64,000 nucleotides of DNA from Dehalococcoidia bacterium (GTDB lineage Bacteria; Chloroflexota; Dehalococcoidia; SHYB01): assembly GCA_965207995.1 (NCBI GenBank), contig CBDBNG010000001.1, positions 4,681-68,680 of the forward strand, given 5' to 3'. Position 1 is the stretch's first letter. Each line of letters starts with the position of its first letter. Below, one piece after another: positions 9,679-51,070 of the stretch. The notes below the pieces were generated by a model that was not told the origin of the DNA, searched no databases, and saw only the letters and a list, made by a program, of their open reading frames with translations. Position numbers and translations under genes: made by a program.

Positions 9679-10837
9679 ACCTCCAGTGCTTCAATAACGT
9701 CCTGATAGCAGCCCCGTTCCCGAGCGGGTCCTTAAGTGCCTCAAGTAGGATATGGGGCAGACTAGGGCCGGGAATGCACGGGTGTGTCAGCGCTGACCTG
9801 ATGAGGACGGGGCGGAAGCGGGATTAGGATGCGGTCAGCCCGACGCAAGTTGCTACAAGCCTCGCGTCGGCTATTGACAGGCTATCGCATGGCGGATGGG
9901 GAGACGCGAGGAGAGTAGACCTCCAGTGACCAGCGCTCACGCTTCCCCGTCACTAGGCGTCACACTACAGGTATCGCAAGTCCTTGGTGCGCCGACAGGC
10001 TGCCAAGCGACATCTCGAAGATGGCGGTATCTACCGTAAGCGGTGGTGGGCCAAGGCGTACCGATTTGCGAACTTTTCGCTGGGAAGTCCTGATCTAAGC
10101 AAGGCCCCGTCAAATCCGGATAGCTCTAACGAGCCTCCGCCCATCCGGTTGGAGGCTCCCTCATTTCTCCAGATGGTCCTATCTCACCGCCAGCCCATGG
10201 GACAACCCTCTCCCATTATCGGCGCTGTGTCAACGTGTGCACAAGACTTGCAATGGCAGATTCACTGTCAGTCAGAGCCGCCATCCAGTGGTGGCTAGGA
10301 TACGAGGGATTAGGAAGGCGACTACGAGCCAGATGACCTCCGAGTGGACGCGGACGGATTCGCCCTCCTTTCGGACAAGCAGGTGGACCCAGTTGCGGAT
10401 GAACCAGATAGCCAGGGCGGGGCGGCATAGAAGAGGGCGTAGCCGAGGCACCGAGGTCAGCCCAGACCTAGTCCCGCGCCCGGGATCCAGGCGAAATCGA
10501 CTGCTTTGGCGATGACTTGACCACTTCAGAGACGATGTTGAAGGCGGTCTAGATGAGCTGGGCGTCGTAGAGGGTGGCGAAGATGACCGGGCGACGTACA
10601 GCACCCAGCACGCCAGCCTCGGTCCGCTGGTTATCCGCACCACAGAAATGCCCAGCCGCCTCCAGATTCCAGTACAGGCCTGCAGCCGTTCGTGACGGCA
10701 CCCCCACTCTTGGCCCGCATCGTTTGTTTTCGGAACAAGCGCCGGCAACGCGGGACGACCTCGTGGCAACTGTCTTCCTGAGCGCAGTTACTGAATCCCA
10801 ATGGCGCGAGGTTGGAACTGATAGAGACGTCCAATGA

Positions 10838-10859
10838 CTGCTGTAGTATACTACAGCAG
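10838..10859. promoter_or_regulatory. Perfect 22-bp palindrome CTGCTGTAGTA|TACTACAGCAG, a candidate operator 27 bp upstream of the HTH gene
   Basis: Seen directly. The reverse complement of ctgctgtagta is tactacagcag. Confidence 0.6.
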
Positions 10860-10886
10860 GGTCTTTAGTCTACGAGGAATCGAGCC

Positions 10887-11114
10887 ATGTATATGCCCGA
10901 GGAACTTACCGTACCCCAAGCAGCGTCCTACCTCAACGTAAGTGAGGAGACGGTTAGACGAAACATAAGGTCGAGACGCCTGAAAGCGTTACGCAGGGGA
11001 ACCCAGTGGTTCATTCCTCGCGATATTCTCGTCGTCTTTGCAAACAGCTACGATCCTAAGACTGGCAAGTTACGATGCCATGAGAGACCGAGTCAAGGAA
11101 ATGGAAGGCTCTAG
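10887..11114 (+). CDS. Excisionase-family (HTH_17) DNA-binding protein. It is either a controller for the downstream MTase operon or an Xis.
   Basis: LTVPQAASYLNVSEETVRRNIRSRRLKALRRGTQWFIPRDIL is a typical HTH_17 / AlpA-Xis helix-turn-helix. It is the first gene of the plus-strand operon. Confidence 0.7.
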   Translation: MYMPEELTVPQAASYLNVSEETVRRNIRSRRLKALRRGTQWFIPRDILVVFANSYDPKTGKLRCHERPSQGNGRL

Positions 11115-11121
11115 GACAACC

Positions 11122-12336
11122 ATGAACGCAGGCACCAAGATTCCCGACTTCTTGGCTGTGGACTTCTATTGTGGAGCCGGGGGTACTACCCGTGGGCTTC
11201 TGGATGCAGGTGGGTATGTGATTTGCGGCATCGACAAGGACGAGACGAACCGTACCTCCTACGAGGACAACAATCGCAACACCACTCTTGACCGACGTAA
11301 GCCGAAGTATCTGGCGCTCGACATGTTTCCTCGCAGCCCGGACCATCCTACAGGGCAACAGCGGGAAATCTGGATTGAGCTAAAGTCTCTTATTCCGCGC
11401 TTTCGCGCCGAGGCCCCGAGCTCACCGTTGCTGTTCGTCATTTGTGCGCCATGTCAATCATTCACCCGATTCATACAGCGTCGAATGACGGTCGACCGAA
11501 CCGAGAGCCGCGAACGCGACCTGAATCTATTGTACCAGACGATAGGGTTCATCAGAGAGTTCCGACCCGAAATGATCATTTCGGAGAATGTGGCGAGCAT
11601 CAGGACTGGTAAGTTCAGCCACATTTGGAGCAATTTTGAGAAAGAGTTGCGAAACCTCGGCTATGCCGTAGGTGAGGATCGAGTCTGCGCGTCGCGCTTC
11701 GGAGTGCCCCAATATCGGCGACGATCGGTCCTGCTGGCGATGCGCGTCGAGAGCCCAGCCGACCTGGTACAGGATTTGCCGGTGCCTACTGCTGATCCCG
11801 ACGCTCCGACTCTTTCCGCGAGGGGAGCTCTCGACCATCTTCCCGACTTGGAGGCAGGGGAGGAATCCGACGACGTTGCAAATCACATTTGTCGAAATAT
11901 CACCGAAGTCAATCGCCGTCGTCTCATGTCTGTCAAACCCGGAGAGGCCAACTGGGGGCTCGCAAAGACCCAGTTCGGTGACCTGTCGCTACCTTGCCAT
12001 CGCAGACTTGCCGCCAAAGGTAAGAAGGGCTTCGGGGACGTGTACACCCGAATGCATCCAGACCGTCCCTCACCAACCTTGACAACGAGGTTCCACAGCA
12101 TTTCGAACGGAAGATTCGGGCACTATGACGAAGAGCAAGTTCGTGGCCTGTCGTTGCGCGAAGGCGCCATTCTTCAATCGTTCGGTGACGAGTATGTATT
12201 TCATGGTGAGAGTATGGACACCATTGCCAGGATGATAGGCAATGCAGTCCCCCCCAAGCTGTCGGCCTACATGGCGAAGTGGCTTCTGAACCTTTGGCAA
12301 GGCCGTTTTCGGAAGCATGTCAACCCAGCAAGTTGA
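11122..12336 (+). CDS. DNA (cytosine-5)-methyltransferase (Dcm-type)
   Basis: C5-MTase motifs are present: I FLAVDFYCGAGG, IV ICAPCQSFT, VI ISENVASI, VIII VPQYRRRSVLL, and C-terminal RMHPDRPSPTLTT and GNAVPP. The start is set at MNAGTK (11122) to avoid overlap with the upstream gene. Confidence 0.9.
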   Translation: MNAGTKIPDFLAVDFYCGAGGTTRGLLDAGGYVICGIDKDETNRTSYEDNNRNTTLDRRKPKYLALDMFPRSPDHPTGQQREIWIELKSLIPRFRAEAPSSPLLFVICAPCQSFTRFIQRRMTVDRTESRERDLNLLYQTIGFIREFRPEMIISENVASIRTGKFSHIWSNFEKELRNLGYAVGEDRVCASRFGVPQYRRRSVLLAMRVESPADLVQDLPVPTADPDAPTLSARGALDHLPDLEAGEESDDVANHICRNITEVNRRRLMSVKPGEANWGLAKTQFGDLSLPCHRRLAAKGKKGFGDVYTRMHPDRPSPTLTTRFHSISNGRFGHYDEEQVRGLSLREGAILQSFGDEYVFHGESMDTIARMIGNAVPPKLSAYMAKWLLNLWQGRFRKHVNPAS

Positions 12337-12343
12337 GGCGGTC

Positions 12344-12760
12344 ATGAGCGATATTCTGACAAAGGAAAGGCGTTCAGAGCTAATGTCCCGTGTCAAGAGC
12401 AGGGACACGTCACCAGAAGTGTTCGTCCGCAGGGCGGCTTGGGACGCTGGGTTTCGCTATCGGCTGAATGTTCGGGAATTGCCAGGGACACCAGACTTAG
12501 TGTTCCGTCGCTACGACACTGTAGCGCTAGTGCAGGGGTGCTTCTGGCACTGCCACAATTGCCGCAAAGGACGGCGCCGCCCGACTTCCAACCAAGCTTT
12601 CTGGAATCGCAAACTAGATGGTAACGAAGCGAGGGACGCCGCGAATCAAGCGAGGCTCCGGGAGATGGGCTGGACAGTGCTCTTGATTTGGGAATGCCAG
12701 CTTTATGAAGGGACAGAAGCCCTATTGGCACACCTTGGAGAGCTTCGGTCCGCTAGATGA
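12344..12760 (+). CDS. vsr: Very-short-patch repair endonuclease (Vsr)
   Basis: DTSPEVFVRRAAWDAGFRYRLNVRELPGTPDLVFRRYDTVALVQGCFWHCHNC...NQAFWNRKLDGNEARD...GWTVLLIWECQL matches the Vsr signature. RBS GAGG lies upstream of ATG 12344. Confidence 0.85.
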   Translation: MSDILTKERRSELMSRVKSRDTSPEVFVRRAAWDAGFRYRLNVRELPGTPDLVFRRYDTVALVQGCFWHCHNCRKGRRRPTSNQAFWNRKLDGNEARDAANQARLREMGWTVLLIWECQLYEGTEALLAHLGELRSAR

Positions 12761-15700
12761 GCAATTCTATGAATCAGGTCACGGCACAATTCACGGCTAG
12801 CGCTCGTACCGTTGATATGCTGGGACGCCAGCAGATTGCGGGCATTCCGAATGCCATCAGCGAATTATTTAAGAACGCGTACGATGCGTACGCAGATCGT
12901 GTAGTCGTCGAATACTACCAGCCTGAACACCTATTGGTTCTCTGGGACAATGGGCTAGGTATGACCAGGGAGGACATAGAGCAGAAGTGGTTGGTACTGG
13001 GCACCGACAGTAAGGTCGGAGACAGGAAAGGGGACTTGTCCGCCATAGCGAAGGAACTAGGCTTGGAGCACCGGAACACGGTTGGAGAGAAGGGCATCGG
13101 TCGCCTCGCAATAGGGGTAATCGGGCCACAGGTCTTGCTGCTTAGTCGGGCAAAGCGAGTTAGAGAATCACCGAAGATGGTTGCTGTTTTCGTTAACTGG
13201 TCTTTGTTTGAACTCCCGGGCGTGTCTCTGAATGAAATAGTAGTTCCGTTAAGGGAGTTTGACCACGGGATATTGCCAAACAAGGCCACTGTAGCCAGCA
13301 TGGTGGACGAAGTCAGGCAGAATCTCAAGCGGCTGCGGCGTACCGGGGACGAGGCAAGAATCAAGGAAATCGAGCAACAATTGGATGGATTCGATTTCGA
13401 TCCCGCTGCCATGCAAGCAAGATTCGGTGATTCGACCTTGAGTAATGCTGGCTTTGGCACTCAGTTCTACATTCACCCCGTTGACAGTGTCCTCAATGAG
13501 GCCCTGGAGGAGAGACAGCGTGCTAGAACGGTAGGGACCCGAGCAGCAAGGCTGAAACTGCGCAATATGCTGGTTGGCTTCACGAACACGATGGTTCACG
13601 AAGATGTCCAGCCACCCATAAGTACCGAGTTCTATTACTATCCCAAAATGGACGTACGCGTGCCGATAATAGGCAGCGAAGAGTTCTTCACCCCCGAAGA
13701 ATTCGCTTCTGCGGATCATCACATTAGTGGCAGGTTTGATGAACGGGGACAATTCACAGGCACTGTCTCTGTGTACGGCAACGCAGTAAACAATCATGTC
13801 ATTTCGTGGCCGGAAGGTAGAGGCGAAACGGCCGACTGCGGGCCATTTCATTTGAATCTAGCCTATGTCCAGGGTCAAGAGTTCGAGACGCGCATGTATG
13901 TAGAGGATTGGCGTAACCTCAACCGCAAGCTGGATGAGATGGGCGGGCTATACATCTACCGAAATGGGATCCGGATCCTTCCCTACGGCGATCCGGACGT
14001 CGATTTCTTGAGGTTCGAGGAACGACGTTCTAGAAGGGCAGCCACCTATTTTTTCTCCTATCGGCGGATGTTTGGGACGATAGAACTTTCAAACGACCGA
14101 AGATATAGGCTGCAGGAGAAAGCGGGACGCGAAGGTTTCATGGAGAACCGTGCGTTTCGGCAGTTTAGAGATATCCTAGAGCACTTTTTTACACAACTGG
14201 CTGCCGATTTCTTCCGCGAAGATTCTCCTAGCGGCACTTTCCAGGTGGAGCGAGAGGAACTTAGCCGTCAAGCCAAGGCAGCTCGACTAAGGGACAAGGA
14301 AGTTGCTCCTGTCCGATCAAGATTTGTCCGTGAATTGCGCCGCATTAAGTCTGACGTTGAGTCTGGAACGTTCGAGGACCGTGTCGAAGAAGTCATAGAA
14401 AGACTGGGATCGGACTTAAACAATAGTGCTGCTCTTCTAGACCCCAGGGAAAGGCAAGGGGCTATCGTGGCGGCGAGCCTAACGGCTGTAAATGAGATCG
14501 AGAACTTACGAGCAAGGTACAGGCCCCCCGAGCCTGAGGGATTCGGAGCCAACCAGTCGTTGCGACGGGAATTGAACGAGTACGGTCTGTTGTTTGCCAG
14601 TAAGGAGGACCGGGTACTAAGGCCTGCTTCGATCCGGGTCGAAGAGATGCTGTGGGAGTCAAGCGAGATATCTGGCCTCGCCTCTGACCGTCAGAGACTT
14701 CTGAAGGATCGTCTCGACCGCTTGATCGAGTCAGAGGTAACCGCTTTAGATTCCGATACCCAAAAGGCCTCTGAAGAGGTCGACCGAGTCTCTCAAATGG
14801 CAAAGGAGGCGTTATCCACGCAAGCCATAGAACTTAGGAACACCCTTGACATGATTGTTTCCAGGGTGGAAGAGAGCTCCCTTGACTTGTTGTCTGACAG
14901 CGAGCTGGCGAGCTTGGCGGTTTCGATGACGTCCGAGATATCAATCTTGAGTGAGGCCAAGCACCGCATAATAGACGACATAAGGAAGCAGTTCGCCATT
15001 GTGAATGTCCACCCGGACGAATCAGGAACACTGATCACCCAAGGTGATGTCGTCGGCGCTATGGAGGAGGACATAGATTCCTTAAGGCACGACTCCTTCA
15101 GAGACTTGGAGTATGTGCAACTAGGAATGACCATCGGCATCATTGATCATGAGCTCCAAGCCGTCATCCGGTCGCTACGCCTTAACCTGGGGAGACTCCG
15201 GTCTTGGGCGGTAAGGAACGAAGACCTGGCTGAAGTCTATCAAGGCATCCGAGTCAATTTTGACCATTTGGATAGCTATTTGCGATTGCTCACGCCACTG
15301 CAACGTCGCTCACGGAGAACCCTTTCTGAAATCAAGGGTTCGGCCATCTACAACTTCATCGAAGAATTGTTTGCTACGCGGTTTGCCGAACACGATATAA
15401 GACTAGAGCAGGCAACGGCTTTTGAGAACTATTCTCTGGTCAGCTACCCCTCTACGTTTTATCCTGTCTTCATTAATTTAGTTGACAACGCGATGTACTG
15501 GCTACAACGTCGGCAATCTGGACGTGTTATAAGCTTCGATGTCGAGGGAGATGCTCTGCTAGTCCGTGATAACGGGCCCGGAATCTCTGCCTTGGATCGT
15601 GAAGCAGTGTTTGAAGCTGGTTTCACTCGCAAACCTGGAGGAATGGGGCTTGGATTGTATATCGCAAGGAGTCAGTTGAGGCAAGTTAACTATGACATTG

Positions 15701-15780
15701 AGATTCTCGACCCTCCGAATGGTGAAGGAGTGACATTCAGGATAGCTCCTCTGGAGGCAGTTAATGACCGGAGTCAATAG
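12757..15780 (+). CDS. 1007-aa protein with two GHKL ATPase domains. The N-terminal domain is MutL/MORC/Hsp90-like and the C-terminal domain is a histidine-kinase-type HATPase_c, with a long coiled-coil middle. Function unknown.
   Basis: N-terminal Bergerat motifs are ISELFKNAYDAYA, LWDNGLGMTREDI and GEKGIGRLAIGV. C-terminal HK motifs are FINLVDNAMYWL (N box), VRDNGPGIS (G1) and GGMGLGLYIARSQL (G2), with a possible H-box IIDHELQAVIRSL. The start ATG overlaps the vsr stop (ATGA). Confidence 0.7.
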   Translation: MSNSMNQVTAQFTASARTVDMLGRQQIAGIPNAISELFKNAYDAYADRVVVEYYQPEHLLVLWDNGLGMTREDIEQKWLVLGTDSKVGDRKGDLSAIAKELGLEHRNTVGEKGIGRLAIGVIGPQVLLLSRAKRVRESPKMVAVFVNWSLFELPGVSLNEIVVPLREFDHGILPNKATVASMVDEVRQNLKRLRRTGDEARIKEIEQQLDGFDFDPAAMQARFGDSTLSNAGFGTQFYIHPVDSVLNEALEERQRARTVGTRAARLKLRNMLVGFTNTMVHEDVQPPISTEFYYYPKMDVRVPIIGSEEFFTPEEFASADHHISGRFDERGQFTGTVSVYGNAVNNHVISWPEGRGETADCGPFHLNLAYVQGQEFETRMYVEDWRNLNRKLDEMGGLYIYRNGIRILPYGDPDVDFLRFEERRSRRAATYFFSYRRMFGTIELSNDRRYRLQEKAGREGFMENRAFRQFRDILEHFFTQLAADFFREDSPSGTFQVEREELSRQAKAARLRDKEVAPVRSRFVRELRRIKSDVESGTFEDRVEEVIERLGSDLNNSAALLDPRERQGAIVAASLTAVNEIENLRARYRPPEPEGFGANQSLRRELNEYGLLFASKEDRVLRPASIRVEEMLWESSEISGLASDRQRLLKDRLDRLIESEVTALDSDTQKASEEVDRVSQMAKEALSTQAIELRNTLDMIVSRVEESSLDLLSDSELASLAVSMTSEISILSEAKHRIIDDIRKQFAIVNVHPDESGTLITQGDVVGAMEEDIDSLRHDSFRDLEYVQLGMTIGIIDHELQAVIRSLRLNLGRLRSWAVRNEDLAEVYQGIRVNFDHLDSYLRLLTPLQRRSRRTLSEIKGSAIYNFIEELFATRFAEHDIRLEQATAFENYSLVSYPSTFYPVFINLVDNAMYWLQRRQSGRVISFDVEGDALLVRDNGPGISALDREAVFEAGFTRKPGGMGLGLYIARSQLRQVNYDIEILDPPNGEGVTFRIAPLEAVNDRSQ

Positions 15781-17467
15781 CTCGCTCGATTACGCCAGCC
15801 AATCGAGAGGAATCGCACAGCGATTTCTTCGTAATGTCCTTTTGCTGGACGACCGAGCCTCCATGGGGCCTTCGCGTATTTTGAGTAGACGGCAATCTGC
15901 TTTGGAGACCCCTGGTCCTGAATCCGTCGACGTTGAATTGCCTGCCGCTGGCCAGGTATTGGCTGGCGCGGAGTCTTTAGACGCTAAAGAGGTTGTTAGA
16001 GGGTTTGCCAAACTGGGCCTAATGTGTGCCCCGTTAGTCCCTGATATCGATGGTGCAGGAGAAGAAGATACTTTCGTGAACGATTTTTGCGAGGCTGCAG
16101 AAAGGGCAGACATCCTGGTTCTCGATTGGTGGATGAGCGGCAATCGGAATTGGAGCAAGCCTCAGTTGGCGCAAAGAGTGATTCGGAGAATTATTGAACG
16201 AGACCAAACTGCCGGGGGTAGGTTACGCTTAGTTGCAATCTATACTGGAGAACCAAATACAACTCGAATTCTGGAGAAGCTGAAGACTTTGGTGCGGCAA
16301 CGATATCAAGGATTCAACCTGTTGCCTGCAGAGGTGGCTGGTCAACCGAACGTTGATTGGCTGTCCAAAGGTCCATTCCGCTTGGTGGTCATTCCGAAGA
16401 ACCCTGGAGCAACTGTAGGTGATCCAATAGCGGGACGTGATTTGGCAGATCGGCTGGTACAGGAGTACTCACAGTTAACGCGTGGGTTACTGCGAAACGT
16501 AGCATTCTGTGGATTAGCGGCTTTGAGAGAGCGTGCCCATCAGTTGCTTGCTACCTTTGAGAATGACATTGACCCTGCATTCCTTATCCATCGAGCATTG
16601 CTAGATGATACTAATGACGCCGAATCCCATGTCATTGAGATACTGGGTTCGGAGTTGTTGGCAATTCTCGAAGACCAAGAAGTAGGTGCGGAAGTTGGAG
16701 ACAATGCCATAGATAGGTGGCTGAGTCACTATGGACAAGATGCATTCGTCAACGTGAGCGGCTTATTGAAGTGGGGACAGAGCACGATCGATGCATGGAG
16801 TCGAGTCTTGACTCGCGGCGCGGGCTACAACGGTCGTCCGGAAGGGGTGTCGAGGAAGGATGTGGACGAATTGGTTGAAGTGCTGAGAAGCGACGGAACG
16901 CAAGCTCTACTACCTAGAGAAGGGAACCTTAATGATGATAGCTATCAGGAGATGGCTCGGCAAGCAAACTTCAAACTCGCTTCTTTGATGAATACAAGAA
17001 ATGTGTACACAGACAAACATCCATATTTGACGTTAGGGACAGTTCTGTTTCGTAAACGCGACGGGAAGTACTTTGTTTGCCTCCAGCCGAAGTGCGATTC
17101 CGTTCATTTGAGGGGAAGCAGACCCTTTCCTTTACTTTCGCTGTCCATTGCGGAAGAGCATAGCAAATACAATTTAGTCCTCAGAGATGAAGGATTGGAG
17201 AACGAATGGGTCTGGCTCGTTGTCCGAGCGGGATCTAGGAGTCTCGAATTGCCTACATTCACGCCTGAAGAAACGTCTGGGAAGGTTATCGCGACAAAGA
17301 GAGCCGGGGGTCTTTCTTTCAAGGATGACAAGAATGCGGTATATCGTTGGGTGGCTGCGATGAAGGATGAACATGCCCTGAGGATTGTAAACGAACTTGC
17401 CTCTAATCTGGCTAGGCCGGGCCCAAACGACTCAGAATGGCTACGACGCAACTTCCCGCAGACATAG
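15764..17467 (+). CDS. 567-aa protein with N-terminal receiver (REC)-like domain and uncharacterised C-terminal region
   Basis: REC-like landmarks are NVLLLDD (beta1 acidic pair), ADILVLDWWM (phospho-acceptor Asp position) and LRLVAIYTGEP (Thr position). No recognisable effector motif was seen in the C-terminal 400 aa. It overlaps the upstream gene by 17 nt. Confidence 0.55.
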   Translation: MTGVNSSLDYASQSRGIAQRFLRNVLLLDDRASMGPSRILSRRQSALETPGPESVDVELPAAGQVLAGAESLDAKEVVRGFAKLGLMCAPLVPDIDGAGEEDTFVNDFCEAAERADILVLDWWMSGNRNWSKPQLAQRVIRRIIERDQTAGGRLRLVAIYTGEPNTTRILEKLKTLVRQRYQGFNLLPAEVAGQPNVDWLSKGPFRLVVIPKNPGATVGDPIAGRDLADRLVQEYSQLTRGLLRNVAFCGLAALRERAHQLLATFENDIDPAFLIHRALLDDTNDAESHVIEILGSELLAILEDQEVGAEVGDNAIDRWLSHYGQDAFVNVSGLLKWGQSTIDAWSRVLTRGAGYNGRPEGVSRKDVDELVEVLRSDGTQALLPREGNLNDDSYQEMARQANFKLASLMNTRNVYTDKHPYLTLGTVLFRKRDGKYFVCLQPKCDSVHLRGSRPFPLLSLSIAEEHSKYNLVLRDEGLENEWVWLVVRAGSRSLELPTFTPEETSGKVIATKRAGGLSFKDDKNAVYRWVAAMKDEHALRIVNELASNLARPGPNDSEWLRRNFPQT

Positions 17468-18361: not shown

Positions 18362-18377
18362 GCCGCCCCCGTCTGCC

Positions 18378-19914: not shown

Positions 19915-19959
19915 TCACAAACTAGTCGTCGTACAACGGCCCCATAGTTCCTTCTCTTC

Positions 19960-32668: not shown

Positions 32669-32671
32669 CCC

Positions 32672-34119: not shown

Positions 34120-34140
34120 CCGGACGGGAAGGAGAAAACA

Positions 34141-38479: not shown

Positions 38480-39740
<1,261 letters not shown>

Positions 39741-39774
39741 GACACACGAAATTCAACATACAAGGAAGAGAACC

Positions 39775-44078: not shown

Positions 44079-44815
44079 GAATCTACTACATCGACGACGC
44101 CGAGGGTCCCGCCTGCTACGTCCGCTCCGCCCTGGGCGTGGACGCCGAGGGATGGAACCGGCTGCACGGACGCTTCCAGGACTGGCGCTACGCGATGGCG
44201 GGCGACTACAACGTCCCCACCCGCCTGAAGCTGAGCCCCCGCGACCTGCTGGCCGACAGGGGCAGGGGGGTGCGCATCGACAACACCGGACGCAGGCTCA
44301 CCCCGGAGCAGGGGGCCGAGATCTTCATGAACGGTCTGCGCGTCATCAGGGGAGCCGCCACCCATCGCGGGGGCATCGAGGTCATCAACGTCTGCCTGCG
44401 CAAGGCCGACGTGCCGGGCTACGAGCGGCTCAGCCTTGACCGGCTCCTCGACCGCATCGACGCCTCCGTCTCGGCGGACGACCGCTACGCCCACCTCGTC
44501 TTCGACGACGACGGCGAGTGGGTGGTCGAACAGCTCTACGGCAGGCCCAGGAGCCGCCACGGGGTGGGGGAGGACGCCGGGCGAATCGGCGACATACCCA
44601 TCGAGCGCATAATCGGCGACCCCTCCTTGCGAAGCTCCGAGGACGACGACCTGCTTCAGATGGCCGACCTCATAGCCCACGCCCTGCTCAAGCAGGAGGA
44701 GCAGCCCTCCGAAAGGGAGGCGGAATTGAGCCTCCACCTGGCCTTCGGCATCCTCAAAGACACCCTCAACCACGAGGCGTCCAGGACAGACCCCCAGGGC
44801 ATCGTCCGAAGGTGA
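44075..44815 (+). CDS. DUF3800-family protein
   Basis: The N-terminus RIYYIDDAEGP and the C-terminus QMADLIAHAL are typical of DUF3800. Confidence 0.55.
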   Translation: MRIYYIDDAEGPACYVRSALGVDAEGWNRLHGRFQDWRYAMAGDYNVPTRLKLSPRDLLADRGRGVRIDNTGRRLTPEQGAEIFMNGLRVIRGAATHRGGIEVINVCLRKADVPGYERLSLDRLLDRIDASVSADDRYAHLVFDDDGEWVVEQLYGRPRSRHGVGEDAGRIGDIPIERIIGDPSLRSSEDDDLLQMADLIAHALLKQEEQPSEREAELSLHLAFGILKDTLNHEASRTDPQGIVRR

Positions 44816-44844: not shown

Positions 44845-46230
44845 TCAGGAACTGCTTCCCTGTACCGTAGGCGAGCCATCCGGGCCGTCGAGCGGCTCCA
44901 GGTCCTTAGGTCCTATGACGAACCTTCTGCCGTCCACCTCGACAGTGGCCGCGGAGAACCTCAGCAGCGTGCCCACCTTGCCTTCCTCGCCATCCCAGGG
45001 ACGCTCCGGTGGCACCCGGACCTTTCCTCCCTCCCAGAATCCCCTGGTCGCCGCTCTGCGGTCCGGCTCAGGCTCCGCCCCGAGTTCTGACCGCAGTTCC
45101 AAGCCGTCGGTCTCACCCTCCGGCGTCTCGATGGTCCGTTCAATCGCCAGCACGCGCCGCACCTTCCCCGGTTCCAGCAGCTTGGCGACTTCTCCGTCCA
45201 CGACCACCACATCCATGAGCGAAGGGGCCTCGACTTCCCCCAGCCACGCCCAGCAGCGGCCCACCCACTCGACCCCAACCCGGTCGTCCTCGCCAAACCG
45301 CGTCTGCGCGACCAGGGCACGGTCCGCCACGACGTCGAGCAGCAACTCGACGACATCGTCCTCTTCTTCGATTTCACCGTTCGCTCGACTTTCGCCTGTG
45401 AGGTGCGGCGGCGCGTCCGCACTGTCCAGCGGCTCCAGGCTGTCCAGTCCTGTGCCGAACCGTTTGCCGTCCACCTCCACCACTCCCGTGTGGAACCGCA
45501 ACAGCGTGCCGATCTTGCCCGGCTGATCACGTGAAGACCGCCATGCTATGCGGACCTTCCCTCCCTCCCAGAGCCCTCTGGCCGTCGCTCTGAGTTCCGG
45601 TTCGGGCTCCGCCCTGAACCCTCTGAACTCCATCCATACTTCCAGTCCGCCGACCTCGCCCTCAGGCGTCTCGATGGTCCGTTCAGTCGCCCGCACGCGC
45701 CGCACCTGTCCCGGCTCCAGCAGCTTGACGATCTCACCGTCCCTGACCGCCACGTCCACGAGGGAAGGGGATTCGCCCTCGGTCAGCCACGCCCAGCAGC
45801 GACCCACCCACTCGACTTCCATCCGGCCGTCCTCGCCGAGCCGCGTCTGCGCGACCAGGGCACGGTCCGCCACGACGTCGATGCTCGTTGCTCCGGTCTC
45901 ATGGGTCTCCTCAGCCTTCGCTTCCCACGCGGCCGCTCCCTCTTGCGAAGATTCTTCCCGTAGCACGTGGGCGAGCGCCTCCAGCACCTGCGGGTCGTGA
46001 ATGGCGCTGTCGTCAACCGGCTCCGGGGCTTCGCCCTTCGCCTTGCCCTTCCTTCGCCGAAAGTACGACTTCCGGTAACAGTTGGGGCCGCACCAGCCCA
46101 GGGTGGGATTCGTCCGCACCCGCAGCCGCACGTAGATCCGCCCGCACTCGCGGCAAACCTTCTTTCTGCCCCTGGACATTTGCTCGAACCTCCCCCGGGT
46201 CTCGATCTGGTCCTTCAGAGGAAGGGACAT
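44845..46230 (-). CDS. Hypothetical protein with N-terminal zinc-ribbon and two ~160-aa tandem repeats
   Basis: CRECGRIY...CGPNC is the zinc ribbon. The repeat DVVADRALVAQTR(L/F)GED...LEPLD occurs twice. Confidence 0.5.
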   Translation of the reverse strand: MSLPLKDQIETRGRFEQMSRGRKKVCRECGRIYVRLRVRTNPTLGWCGPNCYRKSYFRRRKGKAKGEAPEPVDDSAIHDPQVLEALAHVLREESSQEGAAAWEAKAEETHETGATSIDVVADRALVAQTRLGEDGRMEVEWVGRCWAWLTEGESPSLVDVAVRDGEIVKLLEPGQVRRVRATERTIETPEGEVGGLEVWMEFRGFRAEPEPELRATARGLWEGGKVRIAWRSSRDQPGKIGTLLRFHTGVVEVDGKRFGTGLDSLEPLDSADAPPHLTGESRANGEIEEEDDVVELLLDVVADRALVAQTRFGEDDRVGVEWVGRCWAWLGEVEAPSLMDVVVVDGEVAKLLEPGKVRRVLAIERTIETPEGETDGLELRSELGAEPEPDRRAATRGFWEGGKVRVPPERPWDGEEGKVGTLLRFSAATVEVDGRRFVIGPKDLEPLDGPDGSPTVQGSSS

Positions 46231-46392: not shown

Positions 46393-46704
46393 CTACGTCC
46401 GCCTCATCGCCAGCACCGCGTCCGGGTCCAATCCCTCGGCCATGTCCCGGTCGGGGCACGTCAGAATCCCATCCCGCAGTCCCATCGCTCCCGCGATGGT
46501 GAAGAGGGCGAACAGATGGATATGGTTGGGGGCCACCTCCCCGCTCTTCCACTTCCTGATGCGGTCGGGGTTGACTCCCAGAAGGCGGCCCAGGGCTCGC
46601 GTGGACAGACCGCTCCTCTTCTGGAACAGCGCTATCCGCTCGGGGAAGTCCGGCGGCATGACCCACACGACGGGCAGCCCATGCACCCGACGCTGCACGC
46701 CCAT
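46393..46704 (-). CDS. Small HTH protein (paralogue of next gene)
   Basis: GLSTRALGRLLGVNPDRIRKWKSG is HTH-like. Confidence 0.45.
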   Translation of the reverse strand: MGVQRRVHGLPVVWVMPPDFPERIALFQKRSGLSTRALGRLLGVNPDRIRKWKSGEVAPNHIHLFALFTIAGAMGLRDGILTCPDRDMAEGLDPDAVLAMRRT

Positions 46705-46708
46705 CGCC

Positions 46709-47047
46709 CTAATCCTCTCCGCCGCTTGCCGAACGCTGGGAACCGGCGGCCAGGGGCGGCTGCAACACCCAGCCGACGGGAGGGATGGCGTGCACGTCGA
46801 AGAGGATGTAAAGCCCACCGGGGATGCGGGACGCCAGCTTCACCAGCGCGCACATCCCGTCCCCGCTGGGACTGGTGCCGTCTCGCCACCGTTGAAGCTG
46901 GCGGGGGTCCACGCCCAGGCACGCGGCCAGACCCTCCCACGTGAGGAAGGTGGCCTCCTTGAAGGCTTCGAGGCGAGCGCCGAAGTCCTCCGGCACGGAG
47001 GTGTCGCAGAAGAGAAGGTGGCGCGGCGGCACGGAGCTGGGCCTCAT
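46709..47047 (-). CDS. Small HTH protein (paralogue)
   Basis: LTWEGLAACLGVDPRQLQRWRDG is HTH-like. It has similar architecture to 46393-46704. Confidence 0.45.
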   Translation of the reverse strand: MRPSSVPPRHLLFCDTSVPEDFGARLEAFKEATFLTWEGLAACLGVDPRQLQRWRDGTSPSGDGMCALVKLASRIPGGLYILFDVHAIPPVGWVLQPPLAAGSQRSASGGED

Positions 47048-47283
47048 TCGACATCCTCCAGGTAGAACAGGTCGTCGAAGTCGGTGACGCCCAGGGCGTC
47101 CATGAGCCTCTTGCGGAAGGCCGCAGACGGGCAGCGGTGCCCCGACATGAGCTGGGAGAGGTAGCTGGACGAGGTGCCGACCAGACGCGCCAGCTCGTTC
47201 TGGCTCATGTTGAGCCGGTTGAGGATGGCCCACATCTTGTGGGGATCGAGCCTGACCCGGAACGCGGGCTGCCTGCGACTCAC
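47044..47283 (-). CDS. XRE-family HTH transcriptional regulator
   Basis: LNMSQNELARLVGTSSSYLSQLMSG. Confidence 0.75.
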   Translation of the reverse strand: MSRRQPAFRVRLDPHKMWAILNRLNMSQNELARLVGTSSSYLSQLMSGHRCPSAAFRKRLMDALGVTDFDDLFYLEDVE

Positions 47284-47621
47284 GCCGCGCCCTCCTTCCG
47301 GGTCTTCTTCCCGCCAGCGCCGTTGCGGTACAGGTGGGGATTGACCAGGTAGTGGCGGGCGATGATGCGGGCCAGCATACGCAGGCCCTCGATGCGCCTG
47401 CGCTCCTGATTCTTGGTTAGCTTTCGCTTGCCCCTGCTACTCACGCGTTCCATCTCTCTACCAGAGTCCGGCGCTGCAATGAAGGCATGGCCTTGGAGAG
47501 CGCCGGTGCTGTATACTCATTACAGTATTAGCTATGTTGTTCTGCATGCGTAAGTGTAGCAATATACCGATGGTCAACACAATGACAAAACGGCGCTATC
47601 AGAGCCTTTACGGGCAACTTG

Positions 47622-47650
47622 TTGACAATCGCTCGCAATCTTGTAACAAT
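47622..47650 (+). promoter_or_regulatory. Sigma70-like promoter TTGACA-N16-TAACAA, followed by two TGATTTAGC direct repeats (47650-47658 and 47682-47690), in an AT-rich divergent intergenic region
   Basis: Seen directly. It is oriented towards the XRE gene at 47735. Confidence 0.45.
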
Positions 47651-47734
47651 GATTTAGCGGGTAGTTAGCAGTGATTTAGCAGGATGCGGAGTGCGCAAAG
47701 CTGTTCGCACCTGCGGACTCAAAGAGGAGACGAC

Positions 47735-48166
47735 ATGGATGAACTTGAGGAGAAACAGGACGTTGAAGATCGCCAAAAGATCGAGAGCGACGAGCCCATC
47801 GGCCCGCTCCTGCGCCGTCTGCGGGGAGGGCAGAGCCTGCGGGACATCACCCGGCGCATCGGCGTCTCCTCCTCCTACCTCTCCCAGATAGAGCGAGGCG
47901 ACCGGAACCCCGGCTCCAACCTGATCTACAAGCTGGCCGACCTCTACAACGTGGACCCCAGGGATCTCATGAAGCGGGTGGGCAGGGAGGACCACATCGA
48001 CCCCTACAGCCAGGAGGCGATGGACGTGGACCGGGCCTACCAGTACGTCCTAGCCGACCCCGTCTTCCGCGTCGGCACCCGGCCCGACGGCCCCATCACT
48101 CTCAAGACCAAGCGGTTCATCGTCGAGATGTACGAACGATTCGCCAACAAGAGGCTGCTGGAATGA
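47735..48166 (+). CDS. XRE-family HTH transcriptional regulator
   Basis: LRDITRRIGVSSSYLSQIERGDRNP. RBS AGGAG is 8 nt upstream of ATG 47735. Confidence 0.8.
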   Translation: MDELEEKQDVEDRQKIESDEPIGPLLRRLRGGQSLRDITRRIGVSSSYLSQIERGDRNPGSNLIYKLADLYNVDPRDLMKRVGREDHIDPYSQEAMDVDRAYQYVLADPVFRVGTRPDGPITLKTKRFIVEMYERFANKRLLE

Positions 48167-49113
48167 ACGGAACGAGAGTGGACTTCTGCATCAATCTGCT
48201 GGACGACGCCCTGGAGCGGGGACTGGACCCCGAGGGCATCGCCGCCCGCTTCGTGCGCTACTTCAATCTGTCGGGCCATCCCACCGTGCCCGAGCTGACC
48301 GTCCTGCTGAAGGAGGCCGGGTTCGGGGAGGTGTCGGGCAAATGCAGGGAGAGCCTGGACGTCAAGGGCATCCACTTCAGTTCGCCGGGCGGCGGCTACG
48401 ACATCCACTACCGGGAGGACCTGTGGGAGGGCTCCAAGGAGCACACCGTCCTCCACGAGACCTTCGAGATCATCGACGAGACCCTGTGCGACCTGCACTC
48501 AGGCTCCGCACCCGCGCGCAGGGTGTGCTGGCAGGCCGACCGGTTCGCCGCCGCCGCGCTGATGCCCCCGGACGTGTTCTCCCTCTTCGCCGAGGCGTCG
48601 GGGTTCGACGTGGTGGCCCTCCAGGGGATGTACCAGCGCGCCTACTCGTCCGTCGCCATCCGTCTGGCCGAGGTGATGCGCCACCAGCCCCTCCTTGCGG
48701 TCCTGTACGAGCACAGGGAGAAGGGAGACCCGCGCCTGTGGCCGCCGACGGCGACCCTCGGCGACTTCTCCGCGAAAGTGGTGGCGCGGACGCCGGGATT
48801 CAGGCTGAGGATGCAGAAGCGGCCCCTGTCCTCCCTGCGGGGGCTGCTGCCCCGCAGAGGCGCTCCGCCCACGCCGGGATCGGTGACCGAGCGGGTGATC
48901 CTCACCGGCAGACCCGTCTACGTGGAGCGGGTGAGCGGCTACGACCTGTGGCGGAATGACGACGTGACCCTTGCGGCGAGGCCCGTGGTCTGGTACGGAA
49001 GAGTAGCCAAGATAGCCTTGGTCGCCGTGCCGTACAGAGACCGCTCGGTGCTGGCCCCGCAGCTGGGCCGCGCCTGCTTCGAGCGCATCCCTCACTCCCA
49101 CCAGGTGCTCTAG
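48163..49113 (+). CDS. ImmA/IrrE-family metallopeptidase-like protein (partner of XRE regulator)
   Basis: It is co-oriented with and overlaps the upstream XRE gene, which is the COG2856-type arrangement. It has an HETFE metal-site-like motif. Confidence 0.6.
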   Translation: MNGTRVDFCINLLDDALERGLDPEGIAARFVRYFNLSGHPTVPELTVLLKEAGFGEVSGKCRESLDVKGIHFSSPGGGYDIHYREDLWEGSKEHTVLHETFEIIDETLCDLHSGSAPARRVCWQADRFAAAALMPPDVFSLFAEASGFDVVALQGMYQRAYSSVAIRLAEVMRHQPLLAVLYEHREKGDPRLWPPTATLGDFSAKVVARTPGFRLRMQKRPLSSLRGLLPRRGAPPTPGSVTERVILTGRPVYVERVSGYDLWRNDDVTLAARPVVWYGRVAKIALVAVPYRDRSVLAPQLGRACFERIPHSHQVL

Positions 49114-49183
49114 GGTTGAGGCCAGGTTGCTCAGTGATGTATAGTAAGACAAAGCACTACATATAAAGGCAACAAGAGAGAGC

Positions 49184-49417
49184 ATGACCACTCCCAGGCG
49201 TTCCAAGACCATCACCTTCTCGCTGCCCCCGGAGATGGAAGCGCAGGTCAGGCGGGTGATGAAGGAGGACGACCTCTCCGTGAGCGAGCTCCTCCGGCAG
49301 GGTATACGCCTGTTCATGGAGGAGCGGGAGTGGCGAAGACGGGAGCGGCTACAACGGCTGCGCTCCCGCACGACTGCCAAGCACGACGACACAGACACAG
49401 GGAGGAGGAATCAATGA
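49184..49417 (+). CDS. Ribbon-helix-helix (CopG/Arc-like) DNA-binding protein
   Basis: TITFSLPPEMEAQVRRVMKEDDLSVSELLRQGIRLFMEE. Confidence 0.6.
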   Translation: MTTPRRSKTITFSLPPEMEAQVRRVMKEDDLSVSELLRQGIRLFMEEREWRRRERLQRLRSRTTAKHDDTDTGRRNQ

Positions 49418-51006
49418 ACGACAAGCTCGATCTGATACCGGCGGCCCTCTACGCCAGGGTCTCCAGCGACCGCCAGGACGTGGACCTGTCCGTGGCGGCA
49501 CAGCTAAGGGCGCTCAGGGACCACGCCGAGAAGAACGGCTACCTCGTCGTCCGCGAGTACGTGGACGAGGCAGAGAGCGGACGCATCGCAGATAGGCCCC
49601 AGTTCCAGAAGATGCTGGACGAGGCGGGCAAGCCCGAAGCCCCTTTTAGGGAGATTTTGGTCTGGAAATTTAGTAGGTTCACCAGAAAGCGTGAGCACGC
49701 CGTCGCCTTCAAGTCCATGCTCCGCAGGCGCGGCATCCGCGTCGTCTCCATCACCGAGCACGCCGACGACTCGGCAACCGGCAGGCTCATGGAGGCGATA
49801 ATCGAGTCCGTAGATGAATTCTATAGCGAAAATTTGGCGCAGGAGGTTACCAGGGGGATGAGAGAAGCGGCCTCTCGCGGCTTCTGGGTCACCAGCTACG
49901 CCCCCTACGGCTACAGGAGGGTCTACGTCCAGGACGGTCCCAAGAAGCGCCCCAAGCTGGAGTTGAACCCGCCCGCAGACGCTGTGGTCCGCCGCATCTT
50001 CGACATGGCCCTGAAGGGAAGGAGCATCCTCGACATCACCAAGACCCTCAACTCAGAGGGCATCCCCACCATGAACGGCAAGAGGTGGCTCAAGACCACC
50101 ATTCACACCATGCTGGATAACGAAGCCTACACGGGAGCGGTGGTGTGGGGCATCAGCTCCAAGGACGGCCAGCCGCCCGTGAGGGTGGAGGACGCGCACC
50201 CCGCCATCATCTCCAAGCGGGAGTTCCAGCGGGTGAGGAAACTGCTCGACTCCCGCGCACCCAAGCGGGCGAACCCCAGGCGGACGTCCAGTCCCTACCT
50301 GCTCAGCGGCATCCTCAAGTGCGAGACCTGCGGCAGGGCCATGTCCGCATCCGAGGCCAAGAGCGGCAAGTACACCTACTACGTTTGCCAGTCCCTCATG
50401 AAGAGGGGTAGCGGCGCCTGCAAGACCCCCAGGCTCAACGCCAAGAAGATCGAGAGCACCATCGTCGATGAGCTTCGCTCCAACATCCTCACCGAGTCCA
50501 ACATCAGGGACCTGGTGAAGCTGCTGGACGAGGAGATGGACGGAGCGGCACGGGAGCACCGTCAGAAGCTGGAGAGCATCGACGCGGAGCTTGAGGAGGT
50601 GAAGAAGCAACTGGGACGCGTCTGGCACTTCATATCCACAAGCGACAGCGTGGACGTGGCCGCCGCCTCGGATCACATCGTGGAACTGCGGGGGCGCAAG
50701 GAGAGTCTGGAGAGCGCCGCAGACGAGGCAAGGGCGGTGCTCACTGAGCGGCGGCAATACCTGGACTCAACCGACACCATAGCCACCTTCGCAGAGGAGA
50801 TGGGCGAGTTCCTCGCGACCAGCGAGTTGACCGAGACCAAAGCCTTCGTCCACTCCTTCGTCAAGGAGATACAGGTCAAGCCCGGACGGGCGGCAATCAT
50901 CTACGCCATACCGATGCCGGAAGACTCTCCTATGGGTGGTGCGGACTCCGCTGAAATCGCCCTCAAAGGCGGAGTTCGCAAATCGGGACGTGATGGTGGG
51001 CGCTAG
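49414..51006 (+). CDS. Large serine recombinase (integrase)
   Basis: The N-terminal resolvase domain is ALYARVSSDRQ (catalytic Ser). It also has a recombinase domain, a zinc ribbon CETCGRAM...YVCQ and a C-terminal coiled coil. RBS GGAGGAGGA lies before ATG 49414. Its stop codon overlaps the tRNA-Val 3' end. Confidence 0.9.
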   Translation: MNDKLDLIPAALYARVSSDRQDVDLSVAAQLRALRDHAEKNGYLVVREYVDEAESGRIADRPQFQKMLDEAGKPEAPFREILVWKFSRFTRKREHAVAFKSMLRRRGIRVVSITEHADDSATGRLMEAIIESVDEFYSENLAQEVTRGMREAASRGFWVTSYAPYGYRRVYVQDGPKKRPKLELNPPADAVVRRIFDMALKGRSILDITKTLNSEGIPTMNGKRWLKTTIHTMLDNEAYTGAVVWGISSKDGQPPVRVEDAHPAIISKREFQRVRKLLDSRAPKRANPRRTSSPYLLSGILKCETCGRAMSASEAKSGKYTYYVCQSLMKRGSGACKTPRLNAKKIESTIVDELRSNILTESNIRDLVKLLDEEMDGAAREHRQKLESIDAELEEVKKQLGRVWHFISTSDSVDVAAASDHIVELRGRKESLESAADEARAVLTERRQYLDSTDTIATFAEEMGEFLATSELTETKAFVHSFVKEIQVKPGRAAIIYAIPMPEDSPMGGADSAEIALKGGVRKSGRDGGR

Positions 51007-51070
51007 TGGACTCGAACCACTGACCTCTTCCTTGTAAGGGAAGCGCTCTAACCGGCTGAGCTAAGCGCCC
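50994..51070 (-). tRNA. tRNA-Val (anticodon TAC), CCA encoded
   Basis: The reverse complement folds as GGGCGCT-TA-GCTC...GAGC-G-CTTCC-CTTACAA-GGAAG-AGGTC-AGTGG-TTCGAGT-CCACT-AGCGCCC-A-CCA. Confidence 0.8.

Follow-up and report, generated by a model that had tools for sequence, protein, structure and literature searches.

A probable 40,950-bp integrative and conjugative element of an uncultured Dehalococcoidia bacterium, bordered by a large serine recombinase gene that ends inside tRNA-Val

tRNA genes are classic targets of tyrosine integrases. Little is known of how genes are exchanged among Dehalococcoidia, bacteria that are abundant in the subsurface and in soil and are mostly uncultured. 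We asked what to make of a Dehalococcoidia locus in which the gene for a large serine recombinase (LSR) runs into the 3' end of a tRNA-Val gene. The locus lies in a 64,000-nucleotide stretch of contig CBDBNG010000001.1 (assembly GCA_965207995.1, positions 4,681 to 68,680), hereafter the window, in whose coordinates positions are given. A first-pass annotation, made from the sequence alone, had proposed that a ~41-kb island with defence systems, resembling an integrative and conjugative element (ICE), ends at this tRNA. Is the island a single mobile element, where does it end, and how did its recombinase use the tRNA? We conclude that window 10044-50993 is very probably one ICE of 40,950 bp, which we call W, of an uncultured Dehalococcoidia bacterium, inserted by its LSR at the 3' end of tRNA-Val. 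The proposal is thus supported and now has exact bounds, as homology to other contigs breaks at an 8-bp core on both sides and the same element is found at other sites. As an ICE, W is of a familiar general kind; what is unusual is its integration design, which is found across its recombinase family. The features at its two ends are as follows.

10044-10051, unstranded: left copy of the core TGGTGGGC, the crossover region of attL, identical to 50994-51001
10052-10075, plus strand: P' arm, the element-side half-site of attL, forming an inverted repeat with the right arm
49414-51006, plus strand: large serine recombinase, 530 aa, whose open reading frame (ORF) crosses the P arm and the core and has its stop codon in the tRNA
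50971-50993, plus strand: P arm, the element-side half-site of attR, within the last LSR codons
50994-51001, unstranded: right copy of the core TGGTGGGC, tRNA-Val nucleotides 69-76 including CCA
50994-51070, minus strand: tRNA-Val(TAC), intact (ARAGORN and Rfam), serving as the B' arm of attB

The left border had been described as diffuse, somewhere within 9700-10880, and we found it to be sharp. Two contigs of ENA sample ERZ25069580 (L001 and L002), which encode the identical cytochrome of the left flank, match window 1-10052 at 99.6% and 97.3% and diverge directly after; the final bases they have in common with the window are TGGTGGGC (10044-10051) and one C. They carry other elements at this junction, with a recombinase there of the type that we call X below. 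The stretch 9700-10043 is flank common to other contigs, and the direct repeat of the tRNA-Val 3' segment that was to be sought near the left end is present as 8 bp at 10044-10051, not spread across the gene-poor stretch. A comparison with relatives lacking the insertion, which had also been suggested, gave the right border. In five related Dehalococcoidia metagenome-assembled genomes (MAGs; L003-L007), the island is absent and homology to the window begins only at base 50994; the first 31 nt of tRNA-Val, counted from its 3' end, are identical in all five, and the DNA 3' of the tRNA differs in each. Coming from the other side, homology to another copy of the element, on contig L011, stops at 51001. 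Because the octamer is common by itself (8 plus-strand copies in the 64 kb), the evidence lies in both homology breakpoints falling on it.

The core is the reverse complement of the tRNA-Val 3' end, GCCCACCA, and just inside the two core copies lie inverted arms (10057-10074 and 50973-50990) that are complementary at 17 of 18 positions. The arm pattern GTTCGCAAATCGGNACG has only two matches without mismatch in the window, and these are the two terminal arms. When the element ends are joined, they give an attP of ~50 bp, GTTCGCAAATCGGGACGTGATGGT-GG-GCCAAGGCGTACCGATTTGCGAAC, with a predicted junction on the excised circle of GGGACGTGATGGTGGGCCAAGGCGTACC. This joined site has a dyad symmetry of 19/24 centred on the fifth and sixth core bases (GG), compared with 3-10/24 for the other 13 centres tested; the attB reconstructed from left flank, core and tRNA body reaches only 8/24. 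A symmetric site of this length has the shape expected of the attP of a large serine recombinase, whose attB sites are usually barely symmetric. Serine recombinases require a 2-bp crossover, and we infer that the crossover dinucleotide is this GG, equivalent to C71-C72 of the tRNA. At most the last 4-6 nt of the tRNA would then be replaced by the element, with identical bases, and the tRNA remains intact because attP bears the same 8 bases as the tRNA end. The first-pass annotation had suggested that the tRNA 3' end was reconstituted by element sequence; this is correct for the 8-bp core only, as there is no long repeat of the tyrosine-integrase type and the LSR stop lies in host-derived tRNA. 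The window was also searched for direct repeats that take in more of the tRNA-Val 3' segment (as a 27-mer, as a 13-mer with mismatches and by a generic repeat search), and nothing above chance appeared.

The LSR carries Resolvase (1.4e-31), Recombinase (5.3e-24) and Zn_ribbon_recom (2.9e-14) domains, all above the Pfam cutoff, and a C-terminal extension past the zinc ribbon, where a coiled-coil region is expected. Its true start is 49414, as the translation of 49414-51006 is exactly the 530-aa database protein P0001, in which the catalytic-serine motif YARVSSDRQ is intact at residues 13-21. The closest solved structure is SPbeta SprA/YokA (2.6e-18), and there is homology to the A118 integrase too. 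The stop codon does lie within the 3' end of tRNA-Val, as had been noticed: it is the TAG at 51004-51006, 11-13 nt inside a tRNA that both ARAGORN and Rfam recognise. Since it falls beyond the core, the stop is supplied by the target, that is, by host-derived tRNA sequence. Moreover, because the frame runs through the P arm and the core, the last residues and the stop codon depend on the sequence past the crossover. The integrated LSR ends here in ...GRDGGR, and the predicted form on the excised circle has 544 aa and a tail of ...GRDGGPRRTDLRTFRWEVLI / ...GGPRRTDLRTFRWEVLI.

LSR homologues of 99-100% identity, some of them 100% identical, are found on other long contigs. One of these contigs (L010, ERZ25069537) carries the same backbone at 99.57% identity over 11,259 nt, from VirB4 to the LSR, and its copy ends at the same core beside tRNA-Lys(TTT), at a locus with a gene for an MGMT-type DNA-binding domain, fpg, NUDIX, rnpA and yidD. 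The LSRs at the tRNA-Val and tRNA-Lys sites are identical at 526 of 529 positions. A second contig (L011, ERZ25069580) carries the same element at 99.66%, with homology ending exactly at 51001; here the LSR ORF runs on antisense through another LSR gene, of X-type and 53% identical, and two elements thus stand tail to tail in tandem with a common core. The element is therefore seen in three junction contexts, and the same gene order with the same flanks is not what all relatives share. Copies of 99.6% identity at two other junctions imply that the lineage moved very recently. Look-ups of exact proteins (right-flank proteins, Vsr, VirB4 and P0001) returned no match.

The overlap with a tRNA is a property of the family. 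The LSR has more than 4,400 homologous proteins at E <= 1e-30, and the 120 listed (P0001-P0120) are all at least 79% identical to it. Among these 120, every one keeps ...R(D/H)GG and then diverges: ~47 have tails that are antisense tRNA, ~11 have tails that are antisense to an X-type LSR, and ~30 have a LTVDRTIFEMWLG tail. By frame arithmetic, the antisense-tRNA tails fall into classes A, K, I, M and V, plus three unresolved ones (S, S and T). We also observed that the twelfth tail residue after the conserved GG is encoded by the codon complementary to the anticodon of the target tRNA; because the LSR reading frame always stands in the same register to the CCA end, the tail "spells" the target amino acid (K for Lys, A for Ala, I for Ile, M for Met and V for Val). 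In JGI metagenomes, 22 loci have a complete LSR of this kind (W-type), at 63-71% identity. A convergent tRNA overlaps the LSR 3' end in 16 of the 22, with seven amino-acid specificities (Val-GAC/CAC, Ala-CGC/GGC, Arg-CCG/TCG/CCT, Gln-TTG, Met-CAT, Glu-CTC and Ile-GAT), and in 4 further loci the W-type LSR reads into an X-type LSR.

The X-type LSRs form a sister clade, 53-57% identical (L001 8066-9719, L002 8058-9719, L042-L055, L073 and L091). Their genes all end in ...CAGTC(C/A)-(G/A)GCCCACCA and diverge at once past CCA, and no tRNA adjoins them. The X-type elements are turned the other way round, and their LSR occupies the edge away from the tRNA. Two X-type sites (L051 and L073) have symmetries of 16/24 and 14/24 around CC, complementary to the W-type GG. 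They appear from their sequence to be intact attP sites, and their symmetry identifies the "LTVD" sequence as a P'-type arm. W-type LSRs, convergent with and overlapping the tRNA, and X-type LSRs, with a sense GCCCACCA end and a tRNA-distal position, thus appear to be mirror-image polarity classes. We propose tentatively, with slightly more doubt than confidence, that these enzymes make up a large undescribed clade of Chloroflexota serine integrases that use tRNA CCA ends as attB, carry attP in their own last codons, come in two mirror polarity classes (W and X) and are tolerant of different tRNA bodies. Individual enzymes may show this tolerance, with the 526/529-identical pair at tRNA-Val and tRNA-Lys and a near-identical LSR also at the end of another element, a distribution that suggests a relaxed half-site. 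Possibly they read a short TGG(G)A(C/T)-type motif in the T-stem/T-loop region, judging from three sites compared by eye.

Several traces of other elements are found at such sites. Within the left flank, a degenerate core TGGTGCGC occurs at 9986-9993, 50 nt left of the real one, and the stretch between the two encodes, on the minus strand, PPLTVDTAIFEMSLGSL, a sequence that shares homology with the tails, derived from P' arms, of many LSR homologues; 9994-10043 is probably a relic, an arm that an older element left behind at the hotspot. We considered whether the left flank could be the P' arm of the X-type element itself and rejected this for L002, where the site is not dyad-symmetric; the flank still resembles the P' arms of the family. 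Two of the related MAGs (L006 and L007, 4970-8210) have two full tRNA-Val(TAC) copies, at 6294-6370 and 8132-8208, around a 1.76-kb segment of two genes. C-terminal remnants of W-type LSRs precede the first of these copies, with a DUF3800 remnant also in L007, and these remnants are decayed elements at the same hotspot. The same pair of genes lies farther from tRNA-Val in L003 and L004. Lastly, in L012 (11586-11715), a related ICE reads into an "LTVD" relic arm, and CGTCATGGTGG occurs again 117 nt farther downstream; the stretch resembles a miniature remnant element with a core at either end, and no tRNA lies close to it.

The right part of the element, 28.6-51.0 kb, is a backbone whose gene order and gene sizes are kept in two other contigs, L012 (75-85% nucleotide identity) and L013 (85-90%). 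Its conjugation genes and their neighbours are listed here.

28691-30085, minus strand: multi-helix-turn-helix (HTH) regulator with four HTH_3 domains, homologues ~383 aa
30803-31732, minus strand: HTH-containing protein (weak HTH matches), divergent from the type IV secretion system (T4SS) operon
31923-31972, unstranded: palindrome of 25+25 nt in the divergent intergenic region, a candidate operator or origin of transfer (oriT)
32051-36191, plus strand: run of mating-pore genes, with the same order and sizes in L013
from 32051, plus strand: 205-aa protein, the first of the mating-pore genes
32672-33652, plus strand: TrbL/VirB6-like protein (TrbL, 26.0 bits)
33829-34119, plus strand: pilin-like protein (T4SS_pilin; Pfam/NCBIfam)
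34141-35877, plus strand: 578-aa protein with a weakly PrgI-like N-terminus
35859-36191, plus strand: second pilin-like protein (T4SS_pilin)
36213-38474, plus strand: VirB4/TraC-type ATPase (PF19044 1.2e-12, PF12846, PF11130)
38589-39761, minus strand: IS110-family insertion sequence (transposase 38604-39572; PF01548 2.2e-26, PF02371 1.7e-19)
39762-42423, plus strand: type IV coupling protein, TrwB-type (PF10412 1.4e-07, 31.2 bits against a cutoff of 20.5)
42420-44078, plus strand: winged HTH plus Replic_Relax, a putative MobC-type PD-(D/E)XK relaxase (PF13814)
44075-44815, plus strand: DUF3800 protein, conserved in L010, L011 and L012
44845-46230, minus strand: 461-aa internally repeated protein, conserved in L010 and L011 (444-aa gene calls) and L012
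46393-46818, minus strand: HTH protein of a regulatory module
47044-47283, minus strand: HTH_3 protein of the same module
47684-48166, plus strand: HTH_3 protein of the same module
48163-49113, plus strand: 316-aa protein of the same module, with a weak RamB-like match
49184-49417, plus strand: 77-aa ribbon-helix-helix-like protein, overlapping the LSR start

The conjugation genes named in the first-pass annotation (TrbL-like, VirB4-like, coupling protein, relaxation-family protein and pilin-sized membrane proteins) are confirmed by Pfam and NCBIfam, and they are intact in several copies of the element. T4SS_pilin scores 47.7 against a cutoff of 26.6. The best NCBIfam match of VirB4 is the CD1110 family (231.8 bits against a cutoff of 325; 1.5e-68). 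The top models for VirB4 and pilin come from Clostridioides (CD1110) and Mycoplasma ICEs, both below cutoff, which points to a divergent monoderm-type system. PF13814 is scored as the MobC relaxase class by CONJscan (PMC5357655) and is a PD-(D/E)XK family (PMC3424549); no PDB relative of the Replic_Relax protein was found. The multi-HTH regulator has more than 1,800 homologues, several of them on the same contigs as LSR homologues. The regulatory module (46393-49417) has the same gene order in L010, L011 and L012, and its HTH regulators were borne out by profile matches. The ImmA that had been predicted beside them did not hold up: the 316-aa protein has no Pfam match, lacks HEXXH (it has HETFE) and resembles RamB only weakly. 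Nor was a hairpin at an oriT, claimed without coordinates, substantiated; the sole strong candidate is the palindrome at 31923-31972, and L013 has a different inverted repeat at the equivalent position. In the 461-aa protein we noticed a tandem-like duplication of 242 nt (45097-45338 / 45640-45881, 85%) and a weak DUF7406 match.

The IS110 copy, with an apparent 3-bp AAG duplication, is present in the window copy only and is absent from the 99.6% copies (L010 and L011), L012 and L013. It splits the operon of virB4 and the coupling-protein gene, whichever start is assigned to the latter. The uninterrupted gene would start at 38533 or, by the L012 gene call, at the ATG at 39775, and the protein has 904 aa in L010 and L011 and 867 aa in L012. 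Deleting 38586-39761 restores the 904-aa ORF. The insertion costs the gene its first 18 codons or, by the shorter call, sits 14 nt upstream of the start. None of the other backbone ORFs is truncated, and their sizes agree with those in L010, L011 and L013.

The left 18.6 kb (10.05-28.6 kb) is cargo, with a GC content of 53-59% compared with 67% for the backbone. The three defence-type operons reported there are all recovered by Pfam and PADLOC, together with a VapBC pair.

10887-11114, plus strand: small HTH_17/MerR-type regulator heading the restriction-modification cassette; a syntenic 66-aa HTH_17 gene occurs in contig L014
11038-12336, plus strand: C-5 cytosine DNA methyltransferase, Dcm-type (PF00145 1.7e-35; PADLOC MTase_II 1.7e-60)
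12317-12760, plus strand: Vsr very-short-patch-repair endonuclease (PF03852 7e-28; PADLOC Vsr 4.1e-24)
12757-15780, plus strand: GHKL ATPase with HATPase_c_3, HEF_HK and HATPase_c, histidine-kinase-like (PF19191 1.1e-25, PF13589 3.6e-12)
15764-17467, plus strand: Response_reg_2 receiver-like partner (PF19192 6.7e-28)
17747-18361, minus strand: SLOG/DprA-like putative nucleotide-sensing effector (PF02481 5.1e-06, below cutoff; PADLOC PsyrA 1.9e-13)
18378-19403, minus strand: CD-NTase/SMODS cyclase of the cyclic-oligonucleotide-based antiphage signalling system (CBASS) type (PF18144 7.6e-11; PADLOC Cyclase PDLC00790 3.6e-93)
19220-19675, minus strand: VapC, PIN domain (PF01850 4.1e-20)
19663-19914, minus strand: small antitoxin-like ORF upstream of VapC
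19960-21454, minus strand: two ORFs of 248 and 251 aa at the downstream end of the Type IIG and HKD-SNF2 run
21454-24792, minus strand: Type IIG restriction enzyme-methyltransferase (PADLOC PDLC03628, 1216 bits, full length; PF07669 6.2e-23)
24792-28187, minus strand: HKD (PLD) nuclease plus SNF2 helicase (PF13091, PF00176, PF00271; PADLOC C3a139 "HKD+Snf2" 2e-49)
28196-28456, minus strand: AlpA/HTH_17 small DNA-binding protein of excisionase-like fold (PF12728 8.1e-13)

Dcm, Vsr, HEF_HK and Response_reg_2 form one co-directional run (11038-17467) that matches the arrangement of HEF_HK/Response_reg_2 with a C5-methylase. The pairing of HEF_HK and receiver with Dcm and Vsr has already been described bioinformatically (Bellieny-Rabelo et al. 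2021, PMC8011034). The true start of Dcm is probably later than 11038, as the L014 gene has 401 aa, and the real start of the cyclase is probably near 19210. The CBASS-like pair combines a strong cyclase with a SLOG/DprA-like neighbour that matches no recognised CBASS effector model. We assigned the Type IIG/SNF2 pair neither to DISARM, as there is no DrmA or DrmB (DUF1998) gene and only DrmD-like SNF2 and partial DrmMI-like matches, nor to BREX, whose core genes are missing. The 248- and 251-aa ORFs have no significant family match. The VapB-like antitoxin sequence (19664-19833) is duplicated at 19934-20103 (82%), in the 3' end of the 248-aa ORF.

The cargo varies between copies, and defence activities are what its domain content predicts. 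Homology to L013 stops at 28637, right after the multi-HTH gene, which is the last gene of the homologous part, and none of the window cargo lies beyond; the cargo is therefore not part of the common backbone. No convincing P'-type arm follows the multi-HTH gene in L013. L014, on the other hand, shares window 10067-17469 (7.4 kb) at 85%, including the outer P' arm and a GGTGGGC core at the same spacing. The position of this cassette beside a P' arm indicates that more than one element of the family carries it at the P' end. Beyond the cassette, L014 14380-21080 holds many DDE_Tnp_1 transposase fragments and an Mrr-type nuclease, from which we take it that the cargo next to the cassette is highly variable. 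The HK protein is 100% identical at full coverage to P0241 (1003 aa; the window ORF as drawn has 1007 aa) on a 708,957-bp contig, and its cluster occurs on three contigs only, none of them L010 or L011.

We therefore asked how well the reading of 10044-50993 as one ICE accounts for these observations. The locus has an integrase at the edge, VirB4, a coupling protein and a mating-pore cluster, and att borders with presence/absence polymorphism. On this reading, the LSR would have recombined a ~50-bp dyad-symmetric attP with the tRNA-Val 3' end and left the tRNA intact. Excision would give a circle with attP and the 544-aa form of the LSR, and excised W would transfer by a monoderm-type T4SS made up of VirB4, a VirD4-type coupling protein, a VirB6-like protein, two pilin-like proteins and a MobC-type relaxase. 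The left 18.6 kb would ride as accessory defence cargo on the constant backbone, and the window copy would later have gained its IS110 between virB4 and the coupling-protein gene. We infer actual excision and transfer of W from sequence. Some observations count against this reading. As the L010 and L011 copies were available without their left ends, the evidence that all 41 kb moved together consists of the terminal arms and the lack of an internal att-like site. No truly empty junction of tRNA-Val and left flank was found, as every relative holds something else at the site, and an exact-match scan of JGI metagenomes for the empty attB CCGTAAGCGGTGGTGGGCGCTAGTGG gave 0 hits. The exact pre-insertion site is also uncertain, as 9994-10043 looks like a relic arm and not a pristine attB. 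Several conjugation matches are near or below curated cutoffs (TrbL 26.0 against 25.9, Replic_Relax 27.1 against 25.3, VirB4 below its NCBIfam cutoff), the IS110 may impair or inactivate transfer of the window copy, and neither an oriT nor a recombination directionality factor (RDF) was identified in the element. To our knowledge RDFs have no common signature; none like SprB, gp47 or gp3 was recognisable, and the candidates are the conserved ribbon-helix-helix-like ORF of 77 aa that overlaps the LSR start and the AlpA-like ORF.

Could the island instead be a fixed, decaying remnant that no longer excises or transfers, with the tRNA-Val overlap the fossil of an old insertion? We consider this unlikely. 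The IS110, which parts virB4 from the coupling-protein gene or removes its first 18 codons, would fit such a remnant, as would the lack of an identified RDF or oriT, and the LSR and tRNA remnants in L006 and L007 show that such elements do decay at this hotspot. However, every other backbone ORF retains the length it has in L010, L011 and L013, the LSR is 100% identical to copies on other contigs and has its catalytic motif, and the 99.6% copies at two other junctions imply very recent movement of the lineage. In addition, an in-frame ATG with an upstream AAGGAAGAG persists 14 nt downstream of the insertion sequence.

A composite of two adjacent elements acquired separately, namely a defence island (10.05-28.6 kb) and a ~22-kb ICE (28.6-51.0 kb) that alone is the LSR's own, has in our view only a low probability. 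It would account for the end of L013 homology at 28637 with none of the window cargo beyond, for the step in GC content from left to right, for the presence of the left 7.4 kb at 85% in another context (L014), for the HK gene not being on the contigs of the two 99.6% copies and for an AlpA-like gene at the seam. Against it, the left part has no second integrase, and the window has no internal core-plus-arm or att-like site at the seam between cargo and backbone, where only the terminal arms match. The partner of the LSR-side P arm (19/24 symmetry), the P' arm, is found outside the cargo at the extreme left end, and the L014 cassette likewise sits beside a P'-type arm and GGTGGGC core with identical spacing, which fits cargo inside family elements. 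Because there is no internal att-like site and the L014 cassette lies at a P' end, the 41 kb is best read as one unit, W, with exchangeable cargo. That the LSR stop and the tRNA overlap by a coincidence of convergent genes, the island having entered by a tyrosine-integrase-type event with a long repeat or by homologous recombination, is effectively refuted: the octamer is not rare, but neither a tyrosine integrase nor a longer tRNA 3' repeat was found in the window, the homology breakpoints on both sides fall exactly at the core, and in 16 of 22 independent metagenomic relatives the LSR overlaps a tRNA in the same way, seven kinds of tRNA being represented.

Among described systems, the nearest is that of the Dehalococcoides ssrA islands, which have the serine integrase DsiB, a 20-bp repeat and tandem arrays and were judged mobilizable without conjugation genes (McMurdie et al. 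2011, PMC3146451); we set our LSR beside DsiB by description. Both systems occur in the same class of bacteria. In each, an LSR of ~540 aa lies at the edge beside the integration site, a tRNA-like gene is targeted at its 3' end, the far edge carries a short direct repeat, one hotspot accumulates decayed copies and tandem arrays, and an integration module is joined to variable cargo. They differ in that W targets genuine tRNAs (Val, Lys and others) at the CCA/acceptor end and not the T-loop of ssrA, has a repeat of 8 bp and not 20 bp, and carries a T4SS, a coupling protein and a putative relaxase. The DsiB-DsiA-RecF-ParB-Mom module is not present among the element ORFs, where we found no second Resolvase-domain gene (DsiA) and no ParB, RecF or Mom. 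The combination of a VirD4-type coupling protein, a PF13814/MobC relaxase and a serine integrase is known from class 8 of the streptococcal integrative and mobilizable elements (IMEs; Coluzzi et al. 2017, PMC5357655). W has the same trio as such Firmicutes ICEs and IMEs (FATA-type T4SS), its relaxase being a putative one, together with a monoderm-type VirB4 (best match CD1110), but it occurs in Chloroflexota, its T4SS components are very divergent, and its attP lies inside the last integrase codons. Tn5397 and SCCmec-type elements are likewise LSR elements of Firmicutes, and ICEBs1 resembles W in having ImmR-like HTH genes upstream of its integrase. As far as we know, the serine-integrase elements of Firmicutes insert into protein-coding genes, whereas W targets tRNA 3' ends.

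The LSRs of phages (SPbeta SprA, A118, phiC31 and Bxb1) have the same domain architecture, very short attP/attB identity and a dyad-symmetric attP of ~50 bp with a non-palindromic central dinucleotide; the similarity is distant (E ~1e-18), and the enzyme of W, unlike theirs, drives an ICE. As in tRNA-targeting islands with tyrosine integrases, the tRNA 3' end is a conserved landing pad and the tRNA is restored, and as in SSV1 the integrase gene itself contains the attachment site, so that integration alters the ORF. Unlike in these elements, the chemistry is that of a serine recombinase and the repeat measures 8 bp, not tens of bp; unlike in SSV-type elements, the integrase gene stays in one piece, and integration changes no more than the final 1-15 residues of the protein.

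In the searchable literature we found no papers on Dehalococcoidia ICEs or T4SS, or on serine integrases at tRNA 3' ends, beyond PMC3146451, an absence that is no proof of novelty, and no description of a serine-integrase family that acts at the CCA end of many tRNAs with attP within its own ORF. A conjugative element seen in three insertion contexts provides exact att sites and shows the swapping of defence cargo on a constant backbone. If the family-wide proposal is true, these enzymes would constitute a natural multi-landing-pad serine integrase system that drives the conjugative mobilome of Dehalococcoidia and the movement of their defence islands. For genome-engineering toolkits, natural enzymes able to use several related attB sites are of interest. 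The layout with the ORF across attP also offers a simple signature, an integrase tail that reads as antisense tRNA, which is usable for automatic annotation of such elements.

The window has a GC content of 63-70%, with a trough of 50-59% at ~10.8-28 kb, and an Rfam scan recovered tRNAs only. To the right of the island lie tRNA-Arg, tRNA-Leu and ordinary metabolic genes, and also a luciferase-like gene 94-99% identical to genes of five MAGs labelled Dehalococcoidia bacterium. The left flank holds the multihaem cytochrome c gene (8638-9678, minus strand) and, at 1-8411 on the minus strand, the 3' part of a giant repetitive gene for a Calx-beta/cadherin-like surface protein, called at 6012 aa in L001 and 3017 aa in L002. 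This giant gene is the source of the many families of 55-290-nt direct repeats at 1-7200 and of the pronounced negative AT skew. Outside the island, in the chromosomal right flank, the plus strand encodes a HepT/NTase-substrate-binding-type toxin-antitoxin component at 55372-55791.

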